Part shown: positions 1 to 4,917 of the stretch, piece after piece
Layout: every line of letters starts with the position of its first letter
Position numbering within the stretch: position 1 is the first letter of the stretch
Origin: a virus
Lineage: Duplodnaviria > Heunggongvirae > Uroviricota > Caudoviricetes
Strand: one strand, 5' to 3'
Length of the DNA stretch: 5,020 nt
IMG/VR virus record: IMGVR_UViG_2698536506_000003
Made by a program: the position numbers and the translations under genes
Notes under the pieces: generated by a model
The model's input: only the letters and a program-made list of their open reading frames with translations
Told to the model about the DNA's origin: nothing
Databases searched by the model: none

Positions 1-469
1 TGGATTCCGCATCCCATACAGGCTGGACAAATATTTCTCCATTAAAAGTATGGACACCCACCCCTTCACGAATGAATTCGGTAAACGAACGACGCCCTTC
101 CACATCCATCGTACCAAACACCGGATCGCAGTATTCCATCCACGCCGCCTCAACATCTTCAATAAAAGCATGTGAATCTGCTTCCGACATCCCCAGCCAG
201 CGCCAGTTGGGGCGATAACTCAGACGAAACATATGCCCGACGATATGGTCTTTATGAATTTCCACAGCATTCGCGGCAATGCCATTATTACGGACCAGAT
301 CATCCGCACGGGCATTACCCAACTGAATGGAAGGCAGCAGCGCCACATCGGCACTTTCCGGCGCAGGTAACCATTCCGCAAGCTGCCCACCAAATCCGGA
401 GCCGCCACCGGAATATCCCATACTCTGTCGCAGGGGCTGTCCGTGAACATCTATCAACTCCACATTCAC
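1..469 (-). CDS. portal protein, lambda gpB-like; N-terminal ~156 codons only, gene continues beyond window start
   Basis: Minus-strand frame with codon starts at positions equal to 1 mod 3 is open from 469 to the window edge, which is why it has no stop and is missing from the ORF track. Hand translation: (M)NVELIDVHGQPLRQSMGYSGGGSGFGGQLAEWLPAPESADVALLPSIQLGNARADDLVRNNGIAANAVEIHKDHIVGHMFRLSYRPNWRWLGMSEADSHAFIEDVEAAWMEYCDPVFGTMDVEGRRSFTEFIREGVGVHTFNGEIFVQPVWDAES. This aligns with the lambda gpB N-terminus as I recall it (GGGSGFGGQL, GNARADDLVRNNG, FNGELFVQ). Proposed start is GTG at 469-467, overlapping the W stop as GTGA, with GGGAG about 7 nt upstream. The in-frame ATG at 421 is an alternative. 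Confidence 0.85.
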   Translation of the reverse strand, partial: MNVELIDVHGQPLRQSMGYSGGGSGFGGQLAEWLPAPESADVALLPSIQLGNARADDLVRNNGIAANAVEIHKDHIVGHMFRLSYRPNWRWLGMSEADSHAFIEDVEAAWMEYCDPVFGTMDVEGRRSFTEFIREGVGVHTFNGEIFVQPVWDAES

Positions 470-675
470 AGTCTCACTCCCACCGGACCGCGACGCCGTC
501 CGGACACGCCCAGCGCACTCTCCAGCTCTTCAATGTATTGCCGCAGTTCACCAATCGTCGCACGCGAATACTGAACCTGCCGTCCGTTCCTGCCGACAGA
601 AACCACAGCACGCCCGATCATCAGTTCATGTAATGCCCGACGCGCCTCGCAAAGCATTTCATGCGTATAAACCAT
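466..675 (-). CDS. head-tail joining / head completion protein, lambda gpW-like
   Basis: 69-aa minus ORF MVYTHEMLCEARRALHELMIGRAVVSVGRNGRQVQYSRATIGELRQYIEELESALGVSGRRRGPVGVRL. Size, position (immediately after terL, before portal) and sequence (ARRALHELM, GRAV, ELRQYIEELE, RRRGP) match lambda gpW (68 aa) as recalled. ATG at 675 lies 3 nt after the terL stop, with GGAGGA 8 nt upstream. Confidence 0.8.
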   Translation of the reverse strand: MVYTHEMLCEARRALHELMIGRAVVSVGRNGRQVQYSRATIGELRQYIEELESALGVSGRRRGPVGVRL

Positions 676-678
676 CCT

Positions 679-2595
679 TTATCCTCCACTCAGTGCAGCC
701 GCGATCTCTTCCATGCTCATATCATCCTCATCCTGCTCATCTCTTCGTGCCCTCGCCAGCGCTTCAAGGTCCAGTTGCCACCGCTGTACCGAAACGCGCA
801 GGGCGGCATAAGCATATACCAGGCAGTCGAGGGCTTCGTTGCGTCGCCCTTTTTTATCCCACAGCAGTTTCACCCTGCCGTTAACCACCTTTTCCACCAG
901 TTCTTCCGCTACGATTTGACGCGCCTCTTCTTCCGAAAAAATGTCCGGGTTATCCGGAAAACGGAAGATATACGGGGCTGCTTCACTGGCAGAAACCACC
1001 GGCAGGGCAAAACGGGCGTACAGCATTTCCTTGACGGTATCGGAGCCCACCTCACACAAAAACACACCACGCTGGTTGCGCTTTTTGGGCATGGTGATCA
1101 CCGGCTTGCCATACACCGATGCCCCTTTTATGGGAAGCACAAAAAAAGTGCCGTGTTTCCTGGAACGTTGATACACAATGTCCTGGTCGATACCACCGGT
1201 ATCCCAGCAGACGCGGGAAATGGAAATTTCAGTACCGTCAGCATGGCGGTATTTTTTCCGGATCACCGCATCAACACGTTTAAGGGTGTCCTCGTCCTCC
1301 GGTCGCCCCATGATAATTTGCTTGTCAATCAGAAAGGCTTCTTCGCCGGGAGCCCAGCCCCAAACATAAATTTCATAGCGATCTTTCTGGGAGTCTATCC
1401 CTGCGGTCAGGTAAACCACCCGCAGGGGAACCTGCGCGCCATAGTGGCAGACTTTTTCCAGCAACAACTCAAAGCTCAGTTTTTCTGCCACGGCCTCTTC
1501 ATAGGGCTCCCCGAGCGTGGTGTTAATGAACGTCTTGACGCCATTCGGATCCTTCAGTGCATCGAGCCAGTCATAAACAATCTGTACCCAGGTGGTGAAC
1601 GGGCTGTATGCCGTCCAGATGTGGTACGAAATTGAGCGCGGTGGCGGGATTTCCTCATCACCGGCACTGTAAAATGTCAGGCCGTCACGCGTCCACATCC
1701 CGGTATTGTCACAAATCCAGCATCCGTCGGTCTGGTCAAGTTCCGACTGGCGGATCACACAGCCATTATGTTCACACAGGTAATACACCGTTTCGGGTTT
1801 ACCCTTCTCCCATTTCAGGCCAAACGGCGTCGCATCATCGCCAAACTTCAGATACTGGGCCTCCCCGCAATGAGGGCAAGGGACATAAAACCGCATGAAA
1901 TGCGCAGATTCATTCGCCGCTTTCTCAATCTGGCAGGAGCCTTTAATTTTTGGCGTTGAGCCGCGTATGGATTTAGGCCATACCGAGCCTTCGATACGTT
2001 TATCGCCAAGCAGCGTCGGCGAGCCTTCTTTTTCCACATCCGGTTCAAACGAGGAGAGTTCGTCATAGCAGACCACATCCACAGATTTTTCACGGTAGTT
2101 TTTAGCAGCGGCCCCCCCCAGGCACCAGAACCCCACGCCGGAGGAAAAACGCTTCAGGGTGAGTGTGTTGTCCCGATGTTTTCTGCCCAGCCATGGCGAT
2201 AACGCTTTAAGGCTGGGGACATCCCGGAGCGTTGCTTCCACATGCGCTTTCATAAAATCTTCAGCTGCGGAATCTGTCGGCTGGAAGAGCAGGCTGTTAC
2301 GGGATTTATGCTCAATAAAATACCCGACCACGCCCAGCAGCATTTTGGTGTAACCCACACGCGCCGATTTAATCAGATTAACAGTGCGGATCCTGTCGTG
2401 CCCCATGCTGTTCATAATGGCGACCTGAAACGGCAGGGTTTTCCACTCTCCTTCACCGTATGACGATTCTTTAGGCAGATAATAATTTTGATCAGCCCAT
2501 TCAACCGGCGTGACCGGCAATGCCCTTATTAGTGGCTGTAATGCGGTTGTGACGGCGATCATCATATTATTCAACTGTTGTTCGGATATATTCAT
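679..2595 (-). CDS. terminase large subunit, lambda gpA-like
   Basis: Long minus ORF (track 679..2631). Translation from MNISEQQ aligns along its full length with lambda gpA as recalled (VEWADQNYYLPKES, KSARVGYTKMLLGV, FWCLGG-AAKNYREKSVDV, GDKRIEGSVWPKSIRGSTPK, CPHCGE-QYLKFGD, WTAYSPFTTWVQIV, TAGIDSQ-DRYE, CWDTGGID, PIKGASVYGKPV, RRNEALDC). Start set at ATG 2595 (GGAG 7 nt upstream) rather than the GTG at 2631 used by the track. Stop TAA at 679-681. Confidence 0.93.
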   Translation of the reverse strand: MNISEQQLNNMMIAVTTALQPLIRALPVTPVEWADQNYYLPKESSYGEGEWKTLPFQVAIMNSMGHDRIRTVNLIKSARVGYTKMLLGVVGYFIEHKSRNSLLFQPTDSAAEDFMKAHVEATLRDVPSLKALSPWLGRKHRDNTLTLKRFSSGVGFWCLGGAAAKNYREKSVDVVCYDELSSFEPDVEKEGSPTLLGDKRIEGSVWPKSIRGSTPKIKGSCQIEKAANESAHFMRFYVPCPHCGEAQYLKFGDDATPFGLKWEKGKPETVYYLCEHNGCVIRQSELDQTDGCWICDNTGMWTRDGLTFYSAGDEEIPPPRSISYHIWTAYSPFTTWVQIVYDWLDALKDPNGVKTFINTTLGEPYEEAVAEKLSFELLLEKVCHYGAQVPLRVVYLTAGIDSQKDRYEIYVWGWAPGEEAFLIDKQIIMGRPEDEDTLKRVDAVIRKKYRHADGTEISISRVCWDTGGIDQDIVYQRSRKHGTFFVLPIKGASVYGKPVITMPKKRNQRGVFLCEVGSDTVKEMLYARFALPVVSASEAAPYIFRFPDNPDIFSEEEARQIVAEELVEKVVNGRVKLLWDKKGRRNEALDCLVYAYAALRVSVQRWQLDLEALARARRDEQDEDDMSMEEIAAALSGG

Positions 2596-3076
2596 CGAGT
2601 AACTCCGGCAATTTATCCCCTGCCCGCGCACACTGATTCGCTCCCTTTGCGATAAGGGTTTTCAGATAATCAATATGACGCGGGGTTAAATCCGGGAACT
2701 GTCGCTGCATGGATAAAGGAATGGAATCAAGCGTACTGGACAATGCCATCGCCAGTTTGCTGAGGGCGAAAACGCAGAACCCTGAATCAATAAGTCTGCC
2801 TTCAGTTACCTGATTTTTTAATTGCTGTGCTATTGCCTGTTCTTCAGTCAATTTCCATCTGGCGATAAGTAATTTTTCTTCATAGTCTTCTTCGCTATCA
2901 CCATCAGACACATCATTTTTACTTCTCCTCAGATACGATATGTAAAAATCACGCCAGGCATCCAAGTCATGATGCCCCCGTTTATTCGAGACCGGGGCAC
3001 CCGGCAATTTCTGCAATCTGCGAAGCTGGCGATCGGTCAGACTCAAATGCCTGGCAACTTCAGTCTGCGTAGCCAC
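2567..3076 (-). CDS. terminase small subunit, lambda Nu1-like
   Basis: 169-aa minus ORF with GTG start at 3076 (GAGGTGA SD upstream; the preceding in-frame codon is a stop). The C-terminal half (GFCVFALSKLAMALSSTLDSIPLSMQRQFPDLTPRHIDYLK ... LPELLDEYI) aligns with lambda Nu1 (AFCTFVLSRIAGEIASILDGLPLSVQRRFPELENRHVDFLK ... LLSEYI). The N-terminus (TQTEVARHLSLTDRQLRRLQ) is a helix-turn-helix-like segment that differs from lambda. The 3' end overlaps the terL start by 29 nt, as in lambda. Confidence 0.85.
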   Translation of the reverse strand: MATQTEVARHLSLTDRQLRRLQKLPGAPVSNKRGHHDLDAWRDFYISYLRRSKNDVSDGDSEEDYEEKLLIARWKLTEEQAIAQQLKNQVTEGRLIDSGFCVFALSKLAMALSSTLDSIPLSMQRQFPDLTPRHIDYLKTLIAKGANQCARAGDKLPELLDEYIRTTVE

Positions 3077-3120: not shown

Positions 3121-3219
3121 CATGTCCGGTTTGCATGTTCGTTTTTTGTACATGTCCGGTTCACAAAAAGCTTGTTTTTATATTTTTCATATAGTTAACC
3201 AGTAGTGAAACCGGACATG
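3121..3219. repeat. cosB-like array of terminase-binding (R-type) repeats: CATGTCCGGTT at 3121-3131 and 3151-3161, inverted copy AACCGGACATG at 3209-3219, degenerate copy CATGTTCGTTT at 3134-3144, AT-rich spacer 3162-3208
   Basis: Three exact 11-bp copies (two direct, one inverted) lie between the terS start and the cosN candidate, separated by an AT-rich stretch. This mirrors the lambda cosB layout (R3, IHF site, R2, R1) but with a different repeat sequence from the lambda R elements. Confidence 0.6.
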
Positions 3220-3226
3220 GTTCCCT

Positions 3227-3299
3227 GAAAATTTTCGTAAATAGCGCGTTTTTGCGCGTCCTACGACCCCCGGTGTTTCAACTCCCGGAAAGGACCCGC
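3227..3299. other. cos core: cosN-flanking block (3227-3246), candidate cosN / cohesive-end region (about 3250-3275), cosQ-like motif (3285-3298)
   Basis: Minus-strand CGCTATTTACGAAAATTTTC (3246-3227) matches 19 of 20 positions of the lambda left-end sequence CGCTATTTATGAAAATTTTC that begins 22 nt inside the left cohesive end. Plus-strand CCGGAAAGGACCCG (3285-3298) is identical to the lambda right-end block 17 nt before the right terminus (cosQ region). The two blocks are 38 bp apart here versus 39 bp in lambda. The intervening sequence contains a near-palindrome GTCCTACGAC (3258-3267) but does not match the lambda 12-nt end GGGCGGCGACCT. Confidence 0.6.
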
Positions 3300-3443
3300 A
3301 CAAATGGGAGCGTTTATCATTAACATTTACAGATAAGATGACGTACATCATTGAAACGCCATTCAGCCATATACCTGCAGCATTCGTAGTTGCACTCCGC
3401 AACTCTGCGACTACGGTTATAAAAGCATTGGCAACTTTTGCCA

Positions 3444-3487
3444 CCGGCAAATCTTCCATGGATTTCCCCTGCCGGTTTTTTATTTTT
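3444..3487 (+). repeat. stem-loop plus T-tract element, copy 1 (CCGGCA ... TGCCGG followed by TTTTTTATTTTT)
   Basis: 6-bp GC stem 3444-3449 / 3470-3475 with a 20-nt loop containing the palindrome CCATGG, followed on the plus strand by a T-tract at 3476-3487. Shares the block CCCTG..CCGGTTTTTTATTT with copy 2. Confidence 0.4.
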
Positions 3488-3578: not shown

Positions 3579-3619
3579 CCGGTTCTGTGTAGCTGCTCCC
3601 TGTGACCGGTTTTTTATTT
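3579..3619 (+). repeat. stem-loop plus T-tract element, copy 2 (CCGGT ... ACCGG followed by TTTTTTATTT)
   Basis: 5-bp stem 3579-3583 / 3605-3609 with a 21-nt loop, followed by a T-tract at 3610-3619. CCGGTTTTTTATTT is identical to 3472-3485. Confidence 0.4.
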
Positions 3620-3664: not shown

Positions 3665-4057
3665 TTACTTGCGAACCAGACAAACGTCCTTGCCGTTAGT
3701 TTCAATACGTGAATACTGCGGTTTGCCATCAATGACTTCTGACATTACGAACACCTCACCCGGCTGCAGTTCAACTGCACCTTCCGGTAATTTCATACCG
3801 GCAAATACCGGACAGCCCGGATGGCGATCATCTTCTGTTGCTTCCAGCATTGACTCACCAAACCACGCCGTTGTGGCGCGACCATCAGCAGCCTTGTAGT
3901 GGATCAAGTACTGGTTTTCGCCATCCGCATACTGCGCGCGGGCTTTAACCTCACCCCATTCATCACTGATGCGCATCTCCACCAGTTGAGACAACTCAAA
4001 CTTAAACGGAACAACAGCGGCACCAATTGCAACCGGTTTATTTTCTGTTTTTTTCAT
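3665..4057 (-). CDS. hypothetical protein, 130 aa (cos-proximal accessory gene)
   Basis: Minus ORF (track 3665..4087). Start chosen at ATG 4057 (MKKTENKPVAIGAAVV...) because GGAG lies 7 nt upstream, whereas the ATG at 4087 sits inside the terminator hairpin with no SD. Stop TAA at 3665-3667. No domain recognised; no transmembrane segment evident. Confidence 0.6.
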   Translation of the reverse strand: MKKTENKPVAIGAAVVPFKFELSQLVEMRISDEWGEVKARAQYADGENQYLIHYKAADGRATTAWFGESMLEATEDDRHPGCPVFAGMKLPEGAVELQPGEVFVMSEVIDGKPQYSRIETNGKDVCLVRK

Positions 4058-4070
4058 TATCGTCTCCAAA

Positions 4071-4097
4071 TATAAAAAGCCCCGCATTTGCGGGGCT
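4071..4097 (-). terminator. intrinsic (rho-independent) terminator, minus strand
   Basis: Minus-strand AGCCCCGC-AAAT-GCGGGGCT (stem 4078-4085 / 4090-4097, 8 bp, GC-rich) followed immediately by TTTTTATATTT. Lies 22 nt downstream of the stop of the 71-aa gene. Confidence 0.65.
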
Positions 4098-4118
4098 ACA
4101 AACAGGCATCACAGCCAG

Positions 4119-4334
4119 TTAGCTAAGTCCGACAGACATAAAATCATCACTACCTAAACGATGGGAACCATAACGAACTTCATACTCCCCATTCAATTCA
4201 GAGCGTTTAGACTTTGCGCCATCCTCCGTCGCATAAATACCGACCAGATGCCACGGTTTGTCACGTACTACAGCCCAACCCAGAACCCATCCCTGATTAT
4301 CAGGATCAGCCTTCAGGTTATTTTCTACAAACAT
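4119..4334 (-). CDS. hypothetical protein, 71 aa
   Basis: Minus ORF (track 4119..4364). Start chosen at ATG 4334 (MFVENNLKADPDNQGWVLGW...) because AAGGAG lies 7 nt upstream; the ATG at 4364 has no SD. Tryptophan-rich; no domain recognised. Confidence 0.55.
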   Translation of the reverse strand: MFVENNLKADPDNQGWVLGWAVVRDKPWHLVGIYATEDGAKSKRSELNGEYEVRYGSHRLGSDDFMSVGLS

Positions 4335-4374
4335 AGTGTTCTCCTTTTGGGTACCCAGAGACATTCTATGTCAT

Positions 4375-4599
4375 TCATGAAACCGGCAACAACGTGGCTG
4401 TTACAATCCCCGCCATATTCGCGTTCAGATCACATTCAACAGAAATTTCTTCATCCGTGGCATCCACTTCATATGTCCGGGAATAACATTCCGTGCATTT
4501 ACCACTGAAGATATCCTTAACCAGAACACGTCCACGCTGCAAAACCCTGAATGGAATCGTTCCGTTAAAGGGCTTTACGGTTACCAGTAATCTCTTCAT
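4375..4599 (-). CDS. hypothetical protein, 74 aa
   Basis: Minus ORF MKRLLVTVKPFNGTIPFRVLQRGRVLVKDIFSGKCTECYSRTYEVDATDEEISVECDLNANMAGIVTATLLPVS with GGAGGGG SD upstream of ATG 4599. Basic N-terminus, acidic C-terminal half, three Cys (CTEC plus one). Its upstream region is lost in the N gap. Confidence 0.5.
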   Translation of the reverse strand: MKRLLVTVKPFNGTIPFRVLQRGRVLVKDIFSGKCTECYSRTYEVDATDEEISVECDLNANMAGIVTATLLPVS

Positions 4600-4617
4600 A
4601 TCCCCTCCGGATAAAAA

Positions 4618-4754
4618 NNNNNNNNNNNNNNNNNNNNNNNNNNNNNNNNNNNNNNNNNNNNNNNNNNNNNNNNNNNNNNNNNNNNNNNNNNNNNNNNNNN
4701 NNNNNNNNNNNNNNNNNNNNNNNNNNNNNNNNNNNNNNNNNNNNNNNNNNNNNN
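4618..4754. other. assembly gap (137 N)
   Basis: Uninterrupted run of N from 4618 to 4754. Confidence 0.99.
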
Positions 4755-4782: not shown

Positions 4783-4917
4783 CTATCCACCAATCAATCC
4801 GGATAAGCTCAATACTCGCCAGGCGGTGGAAATGAAAATGGCAACCAACATTGCTGAAAATGAAAGGCCAACAACCACACAGAGAATTCGCGCCAGTTTT
4901 ATAATGCTATCTGACAT
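4783..4917 (-). CDS. candidate small membrane protein, 44 aa
   Basis: Minus ORF; internal ATG at 4917 gives MSDSIIKLARILCVVVGLSFSAMLVAIFISTAWRVLSLSGLIGG, with one predicted transmembrane helix (about 23 hydrophobic residues) and a G-rich AGGGG stretch upstream. The track's longer form starts at GTG 5010, directly after a stop. The island 4755-5020 is separated from the rest by the gap. Confidence 0.3.
   Translation of the reverse strand: MSDSIIKLARILCVVVGLSFSAMLVAIFISTAWRVLSLSGLIGG

Follow-up and report, generated by a model that had tools for sequence, protein, structure and literature searches.

Gene content of the locus

The DNA analysed here is a 5,020-nucleotide (nt) stretch of IMG/VR virus record IMGVR_UViG_2698536506_000003 (Caudoviricetes), called the window below, and our subject is a set of three small genes in it, encoding proteins of 74, 71 and 130 amino acids (aa), which an earlier sequence-only reading had described as one accessory, moron-like cluster beside the phage cos site. 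Coordinates refer to the whole window. All of its genes lie on the minus strand, on which they are read 5′ to 3′, according to the list of open reading frames (ORFs) and to Pfam and PHROG identifications. The order of transcription runs from a small membrane-protein gene through a run of N to the 74-aa gene, the 71-aa gene, an intrinsic terminator and the 130-aa gene, followed by about 590 nt of non-coding sequence, Nu1, TerL and gpW (Table 1). By megablast, the region falls in E. coli lambdoid prophages, with the best match in strain C5 at 99.6% identity, and RefSeq carries the same three coding sequences (CDS) at the C5 locus.

Table 1 Features of the 5,020-nt window, in the order of transcription.
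Feature	Coordinates	Strand	Basis or remark
Small membrane-protein gene	4783–4917	-	phrog_4906
Run of 137 N	4618–4754		masks cassette leader and most of the 60-aa lipoprotein gene (phrog_7528)
Visible part of the 74+71 cassette (leader, 74, 71, terminator)	4058–4617	-	comparison of occupied and empty sites
74-aa gene	4375–4599	-	ORF, Shine-Dalgarno (SD) sequence GGAGGGG, phrog_2571
71-aa gene	4119–4334	-	ORF, SD AAGGAG, phrog_4280
Intrinsic terminator	4068–4097	-	stem and T-run; folding energy; travels with cassette
130-aa gene	3665–4057	-	ORF, SD GGAGA, phrog_1935
Predicted N-terminal SH3/Tudor-like beta-barrel domain of the 130-aa protein (~residues 18–77)	3827–4006	-	conserved family core
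Predicted C-terminal beta-meander mini-domain of the 130-aa protein (~residues 94–130)	3668–3778	-	long form only
Very stable hairpin after the 130-aa stop codon	3624–3660	-	18-nt arms, no U-tail
cosN, inferred 12-nt cohesive-end site	~3257–3268		alignment with ends of the phage cdtI record
cosB-like region	3121–3219		three CATGTCCGGTT repeats between cosN and Nu1 start
Nu1	2567–3076	-	Pfam/PHROG match
TerL (large terminase subunit)	679–2631	-	Pfam/PHROG match
gpW	466–675	-	Pfam/PHROG match

The three genes are under purifying selection and are genuine coding sequence, with median dN/dS values against relatives of 0.21 (74 aa), 0.13 (71 aa) and 0.23 (130 aa) and dS reaching ~2. Each carries the strong SD sequence predicted for it, 5–6 nt before the ATG; longer versions of the ORFs (81 and 140 aa) have no ribosome-binding site, and homologues begin with MFV.. 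and MKK../MEK... Their very small size, the absence of a curated family and an internal stop in the 130-aa gene of one relative (L002) could suggest chance or decaying frames in prophage junk, an explanation of negligible probability that is already refuted by the low dN/dS at such high dS, the good SD sequences, PHROG matches with E-values down to 1e-66, the confident predicted fold of the 71-aa protein and the presence of the genes in the plaque-forming phages mEp237 and phiP27.

The products are soluble, non-enzymatic-looking proteins of mildly acidic character (pI 5.1–6.2), and none of the features of lysis proteins was found in any of them: there is no transmembrane segment (maximum 19-residue Kyte-Doolittle mean ≤1.29), no lipobox and no muralytic domain. 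Single-sequence and profile searches of Pfam, NCBIfam, PADLOC and PDB returned nothing significant for all three, and PADLOC-DB v2 gave 0 families at E≤1 for these proteins and the neighbouring membrane protein. The view of the genes as non-structural, non-lysis accessory genes without a curated family match therefore stands. The further suggestion that they were the best candidate in the window for something undescribed has to be withdrawn, since all three belong to established PHROG families (phrog_2571, E 2.6e-28; phrog_4280, E 6e-41; phrog_1935, E 2.2e-66; in the order 74, 71 and 130 aa) and occur in sequenced phages, as phiP27 L33, as mEp237 gp60/gp61 and in Stx2c phages. These PHROGs are all labelled ‘unknown function’, the sequences are already catalogued as hypothetical, and, judged by sequence comparison, no known functional family fits any of them.

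We place cosN as listed in Table 1 because the alignment with the right end of the phage cdtI record stops at window position ~3269; the left end of that record begins GGGCGGGAGCGT, and the site resembles lambda cos. The predicted proximity to cos is thereby confirmed, with ~400 nt between the end of the 130-aa gene and cosN, which makes the three genes the last ones on the right arm of the mature genome. In lambda-like phages the right end is packaged last and, in lambda, injected first. An accessory slot between lysis genes and cos is likewise borne out as a position, with its lysis side lying outside the window and visible in the relatives L002 and L003. The three genes keep this place, flanked by the lysis cassette and the terminase genes, in relatives whose head modules and endolysins differ, one combining a lambda-like head with a GH108 endolysin and another an HK97-like protease-capsid fusion with an M15 endolysin. 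The length of the N-run is not true to sequence, as four relatives in which both flanks are identical have 303 nt there, encoding most of the 60-aa lipoprotein (lipobox LVGC) together with the leader of the 74+71 cassette.

A two-gene cassette upstream of an independent gene

Co-occurrence was assessed in IMG/VR loci anchored on each gene and searched with family hidden Markov models (HMMs). In these loci, many of which are near-identical so that counts do not represent independent events except where distinct sequences are specified, the other two genes are missing from 70 of the 79 with the 130-aa gene, a 71-like gene is missing from 61 of the 80 with a 74-like gene, and a 74-like gene accompanies 52 of the 78 71-like genes. 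Comparison of occupied and empty sites shows how the pair is set into the locus. Both kinds of site share sequence up to ...GAAATTCTG and again from GGAGACGAT, the SD of the 130-aa gene, onwards; between these flanks, the empty site has ~105 nt and the occupied site a ~95-nt leader, the 74-aa gene, the 71-aa gene and the terminator. The right junction of the cassette is thus the SD of the 130-aa gene, its left junction (...GAAATTCTG|) falls inside the N-run, and the cassette has the small lipoprotein gene on one side and the 130-aa gene on the other. A survey of 5426 complete E. coli genomes identified 80% or more of it in 32.

The terminator after the 74/71 pair proved to be as strong as predicted, consisting of an 8-bp stem at 4097–4078 (7 GC pairs, loop of 4) followed by TTTTATATTT, with a folding energy of -17.9 kcal/mol (z -3.7), and the 130-aa gene does follow it directly, its SD beginning 1–2 nt past the T-run. 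This GCCCCGC...GCGGGGC terminator occurs in 9/9 relatives with the cassette and in 0/70 without it. Terminator and leader travel only with the pair, and we therefore conclude that a two-gene cassette has been inserted upstream of an independent gene; the earlier description of a three-gene cluster as one unit is not sustained.

The pairing extends well beyond the close relatives. Among enteric-type loci, defined by a GC content below 0.55 and counted after removal of duplicate sequences, the 71-like gene is immediately preceded by a 74-like gene in the same orientation in 44 of 51 distinct loci, compared with none of the 83 high-GC loci. In 44 of 52 distinct enteric loci, a hairpin and T-run resembling a terminator come after the 71-like gene, usually 5–36 nt past its stop codon; the same test was positive in 41 of 1000 random windows (4.1%) and after 0 of 23 lone 74-like genes. 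Since these 44 loci carry 22 different hairpins, the terminator is conserved as a feature and its sequence is not. The pair is also found at other late-region sites, upstream of lysis genes in Providencia and in a Yersinia alsatica prophage, where the major tail and tape-measure genes flank it.

Some relatives end differently on the cos side. In one (L071, 5215–5400), the 74-aa gene runs into a 3′ remnant of the L33 gene (the family of the 130-aa gene, see below) and then into an exact lambda-type cosN (GGGCGGCGACCT); in another (L092, 5455–5600), a cassette with a different 71 allele abuts cos directly and the L33 gene is absent. These are cases of decay or alternative ends among relatives.

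The arrangement in the window, with three adjacent, tightly spaced genes on one strand, would also fit a single system in which all three act together, such as a defence or anti-defence operon of three components. The same order recurs in 15 E. coli genomes and in 14–15 IMG/VR loci, and in Providencia all three families lie within 3.5 kb. Such a system is largely refuted by the distribution given above, by the terminator, which lies between the pair and the 130-aa gene and accompanies the former only, and by the occurrence of the 71-aa family as a singleton in pseudomonads, and we consider it very unlikely.

The moron label given earlier to the locus fits the cassette in several respects. Presence and absence with sharp junctions at the same site was observed (9 loci with the cassette, 70 without), and the cassette brings its own 3′ terminator, in the window as in the enteric loci. 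Base composition deviates as well: the impression by eye of an AT-rich region was correct for the 74- and 71-aa genes, at 44.9% GC (45.2% for the whole cassette) against 52.5% for TerL, but not for the 130-aa gene, at 49.4%, and Nu1 itself (46.1%) and the cos region also lie at 45–46%. The remaining hallmark, an own promoter, was looked for and not found.

Taken together, these data lead us to favour, with a probability of roughly 0.55, the reading that two independent accessory modules, rather than one system, form a mosaic at the right end of a lambda-like genome. Module A, extending from ~4058 into the N-run, would be a mobile cassette that comprises the leader, both genes of the pair and the intrinsic terminator. 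Module B would be the 130-aa L33-family protein, predicted to combine an HspQ/YccV-like SH3 barrel with a small beta domain. The best-supported picture is one of small soluble binding proteins and of a self-terminated mobile 74+71 cassette whose core, the 71-aa gene, shows the behaviour of a moron in prophages of gamma- and beta-proteobacteria. What changes is mainly the anatomy of the locus, with two modules in place of one, in a region that is ordinary mosaic accessory DNA.

Several observations have to be set against this reading, in addition to the near-identity of many IMG/VR loci. No sigma-70-like site was found on the gene strand in the window, where the leader is N-masked, or in C5, and promoter-like sites in 49 distinct enteric leaders (3/49) showed no enrichment over random windows (7.5%); the enteric pair may therefore simply be late-transcribed. 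Our literature search also returned no papers mentioning the RefSeq accessions of these genes. A search on the name mEp237 matched only unrelated DOI strings.

The protein families and their possible roles

The 71-aa family ranges from lambdoid phages of Enterobacterales to prophages of Pseudomonas, Vreelandella and Azotobacter. Its members share the motifs DPDNxGWVLGW and YGSHRLGSDDF, and those of E. coli and Pseudomonas are 50–60% identical despite a length of only 71 residues. An AlphaFold2 model of the window protein (pLDDT 94, pTM 0.82) predicts a beta-beta-alpha-beta-beta fold, that is, a four-stranded sheet with one helix and an N-terminal extension, for which no neighbour was found among solved or viral structures. 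Family members compared with Pfam gave sub-threshold matches only, to DUF7336 and DUF7457.

In pseudomonads, 71-like genes lie in tail operons or chromosomal islands, and no conserved partner was detected in Pseudomonas neighbourhoods, where the neighbours are alcohol dehydrogenase, LysR, integrase fragments and tail genes. At the high-GC loci (Pseudomonas, Vreelandella and relatives) that have tail genes within 4 kb, the 71-like gene is on the strand opposite to the tail genes in 30 of 30 cases, typically as a lone gene between gpI-like and gpJ-like genes (e.g. in phage YMC11/02/R656). A lone, opposite-strand gene in a tail operon is the textbook layout of a moron and needs its own transcription, and this orientation lends indirect support to a possible expression from the repressed prophage. 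Within the tail operon of a Vreelandella aquamarina prophage (L318, 5919–5948), we noted a promoter-like site with an extended -10 element (TCGATA-18-TG-AATAAT) 52 nt upstream of an opposite-strand 71-aa homologue; by chance alone, the region would contain 0.5 such sites.

We therefore suggest that the 71-aa protein is the functional core of module A and a moron product, transcribable independently of the late operon; its gene runs opposite to the tail operon in pseudomonads and is linked to a terminator in enterics. As a small binding protein, it probably recognises a host protein or a small-molecule signal that is conserved in both gamma- and beta-proteobacteria, and binding would benefit the lysogen or the infecting phage. 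A role in defence, exclusion or anti-defence is possible, at rather less than even odds, and anything more specific is given less. If this is true, so tiny and so widespread a family with a confidently predicted, unmatched fold could reveal a new effect of prophages on host or phage biology.

The 74-aa family is narrower, with 48 homologues that all come from phages of Enterobacterales. G33-K34-C35 is invariant in it, S32 is at least 90% conserved (giving an SGK motif) and C56 is nearly invariant; an alternating hydrophobic pattern suggests a small all-beta cytoplasmic protein of six beta strands. The protein covers only positions 100–172 of the 291-position phrog_2571 profile. An exhaustive HMMER search with the 74-aa profile against 1.84 billion representatives gave 44 matches, namely the same small family with or without unannotated extensions, and Pfam searches on five of the longer matches yielded nothing useful. 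A 602-aa repeat protein (P0197) among the matches was judged spurious on reading its sequence. Candidate hidden relatives of the family were rejected at hhalign probabilities of ≤1.1%. They included three proteins whose genes take the upstream place beside 71-like genes elsewhere (76 aa in Superficieibacter, gp054 of a Pseudomonas phage and 98 aa in Pseudomonas), as well as the product of the 91-aa gene upstream in C5, the 71-aa protein and the C-terminal mini-domain of the 130-aa protein. Lone 74-like genes are common directly after Rz/Rz1 in Stx1a-, Stx2a- and Stx2c-converting phages, and the 74-aa protein would be a frequent but dispensable partner in enteric phages.

Two small adjacent genes, conserved as a pair in enteric phages, equipped with their own terminator and found at moron positions, would be of the right size for a toxin-antitoxin or abortive-infection module expressed from the prophage. 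Such a module would require obligate co-occurrence, which the loci do not show: the 74-like gene stands alone in 61 of 80 (for example after Rz in Stx phages) and the 71-like gene in all 83 high-GC loci. With both genes so often found singly, a toxin-antitoxin relationship is most improbable; in addition, PADLOC, Pfam and NCBIfam gave no toxin or antitoxin match, no promoter was found, and the two genes are spaced by ~40 nt with no overlap.

The 130-aa protein is a long form of the phiP27 L33 family (phrog_1935). Residues 1–95 are 91.6% identical to phiP27 L33, and many homologues of 83–98 aa consist of this N-terminal part alone, one of them having the part in tandem. The C-terminal mini-domain matches phrog_8025, is modelled as four strands at pLDDT 54–69 and appears in the alignment in the long form only. 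Some match to the gene is present in 265 of 5426 complete E. coli genomes, and its upstream neighbour is the 60-aa lipoprotein gene in 59 of 79 loci. More distant L33 homologues were found in an early region of Burkholderia phage Bcep176, in Bordetella and Yersinia phages, and in a P2-like phage, where the gene has the terminase small-subunit gene on one side and the adaptor gene on the other.

In the predicted model of the 130-aa protein (overall pLDDT 69), the SH3-like barrel superposes closely on the HspQ/YccV fold. HspQ is an activator and a substrate of Lon and can become an inhibitor of ClpS (PMC6719616), which leads to the hypothesis that L33-family proteins modulate a host AAA+ protease: the HspQ-like barrel would bind a component of this machinery, Lon or ClpS, and retune proteolysis during infection. 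We hold this mechanism as doubtful. The modelled likeness to HspQ is one of structure only, and the ligands of SH3-like barrels are very diverse; an hhalign comparison with E. coli HspQ gave a probability of 0.4% and no PDB profile matched, which speaks against a sequence link to the YccV-like/HspQ family (PF08755), and 30 L33-family members searched against Pfam at E≤10 gave no YccV hit and only stray matches (Tudor-knot, 0.037). If true, an HspQ-barrel phage protein would lengthen the short list of phage regulators of host AAA+ proteases, which includes T4 PinA, T7 Gp4.5 and lambda RexB.

The main alternative to protease binding is that the L33-family protein is a DNA-binding packaging helper at cos. 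A DNA or packaging role becomes a rival because the gene keeps a constant place beside cos, as the last gene before it, in combination with several terminase types (at least three, Nu1-like, DUF1441-type and HNH plus P27-type); its SH3-like fold would suit such a role, and in ESSI2 the homologue follows the terminase small-subunit gene by 2 nt. Its linkage, however, is to the lysis-side lipoprotein and not to one terminase type, the protein is acidic (pI 5.1), only the E. coli genomes counted above have a match to the gene, and the close relatives L071 and L092 package without it. We regard a packaging helper as improbable.

Proximity to the lysis genes could instead indicate accessory parts of the lysis cassette, such as cytoplasmic regulators of holin or spanin timing. 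Besides the 74-like genes immediately after Rz/Rz1 in the Stx phages, and in mEp237, this explanation can draw on the position of the 130-aa gene after the post-endolysin lipoprotein and on the orientation of all three genes with the late operon. It is at odds with the lack of a membrane segment and lipobox in all three proteins, with the pair lying between tail genes, with L33 homologues located between the terminase small subunit and the head-tail adaptor or in the early region of Bcep176, and with pseudomonad 71-like genes in tail operons or chromosomal islands, and we consider it quite unlikely.

We attach low probabilities to all mechanisms offered for the proteins. The boldest combination, in which the 71-aa protein would be the founding member of a structurally new family acting as a sponge or inhibitor of a conserved immune signal or host factor and the L33 protein an HspQ mimic hijacking Lon/ClpS, would amount to two new anti-defence or host-takeover mechanisms located at the last-packaged genome end and is rather unlikely.

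Flanking features and comparison with known systems

The non-coding stretch beside cos has features of its own. The hairpin that follows the 130-aa gene (-28.9 kcal/mol, z -6.9) could be a transcript-end stabiliser or a protein-binding site, and phiP27 and Salmonella phage Fels-1 share its 38-nt sequence at 97% identity. The three copies of CATGTCCGGTT, at 3121, 3151 and, inverted, at 3209, suggest terminase small-subunit sites like those of lambda cosB, an assignment that we presume by analogy with the lambda R sites. An Rfam search found nothing at E<0.2. Between the 130-aa gene and cosN there is an exact 14-nt direct repeat, CCGGTTTTTTATTT, at 3472–3485 and 3606–3619, 134 nt apart. A 225-nt CDS annotated in RefSeq for C5 (window ~3235–3459; L001 9008–9232) would cross cosN; it is likely spurious, and its ORF is kept in 41 loci, probably because the cos region itself is conserved.

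Two observations concern the 130-aa family. The linker (..PGCPVFAGMKLPEG..) is encoded by a 41-nt stretch at 3780–3820 that phage cdtI shares with 100% identity but reads in another frame, at the end of orf60. The stretch is also seen in many E. coli genomes and has the look of a deletion scar or of a junction at which recombination has recurred; we read the end of cdtI orf60 as a probable KilA-N-like remnant. In Bcep176 (L312, 2995–3745), gp32, a 58-aa protein with the SH3 domain only, adjoins the opposite-strand gp33, named ‘phage P27p33-like’ by its depositors, and the two may be divergent L33 paralogues side by side.

Downstream of the endolysin gene (window 4783–4917; L001 10535–11056) lie two genes for tiny single-pass membrane proteins (60 and 44 aa) and that of the 60-aa lipoprotein, all three in PHROGs of unknown function, in place of a recognisable Rz/Rz1 pair; they may be an unusual spanin equivalent or exclusion proteins. 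In E. coli C5 (L001 11692–19390), a Mu-like transposable prophage with repressor, Mu transposase and AAA ATPase genes lies ~1.3 kb upstream of the cassette, in the place where other relatives carry holin and endolysin genes.

We compared the modules with the nearest known systems. For the 71-aa family, a connection to DUF2188 (PF09954) comes from one Pseudomonas member that bears this name in UniRef, and the order of elements (beta-beta-alpha-beta-beta with an early Trp) resembles that of DUF2188. The identity was rejected, as 0 of 37 members match the Pfam model at E≤1. DUF2188 itself has been linked to defence operons (10.1101/2022.04.27.489752). Others have predicted its association with conflict systems.

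For the 130-aa protein, HspQ/YccV (PDB 5ycq) differs in having no significant sequence or profile similarity to it, and HspQ has a C-terminal tail that is a Lon degron where the 130-aa protein has its predicted beta mini-domain. HspQ/YccV was reportedly first described as a binder of hemimethylated DNA. The likeness to phiP27 L33 (P27p33) is closer, as the gene occupies the same site, after a lysis cassette with an M15 endolysin and just before HNH, cos and terminase, and is followed by the same conserved hairpin; the window protein differs from it by the extra ~35-residue C-terminal domain.

The cassette has its nearest counterpart in mEp237, where gp60 and gp61 represent the same two families in unchanged order; they lie close to the right end of the genome, behind the spanin gene and ahead of an intrinsic terminator. 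The gp61 protein is 64% identical to the 71-aa protein over residues 1–66, and gp60 is placed in the 74-aa family by its phrog_2571 match only. Both are annotated as hypothetical, and the genes downstream are the phi80-like gp62 and gp63 instead of L33.

Hendrix and colleagues are said to have defined morons with lambda bor and lom and HK97 gp15 as examples. The enteric cassette differs from these classical cases in that no promoter was detected for it and its products are predicted to be cytoplasmic, not envelope proteins. It shares with them a patchy distribution among relatives, sharp junctions, an own terminator, a lower GC content and late-region sites, and the pseudomonad copies of the 71-aa gene, as opposite-strand singletons in tail operons, are likewise in line with the classical moron.

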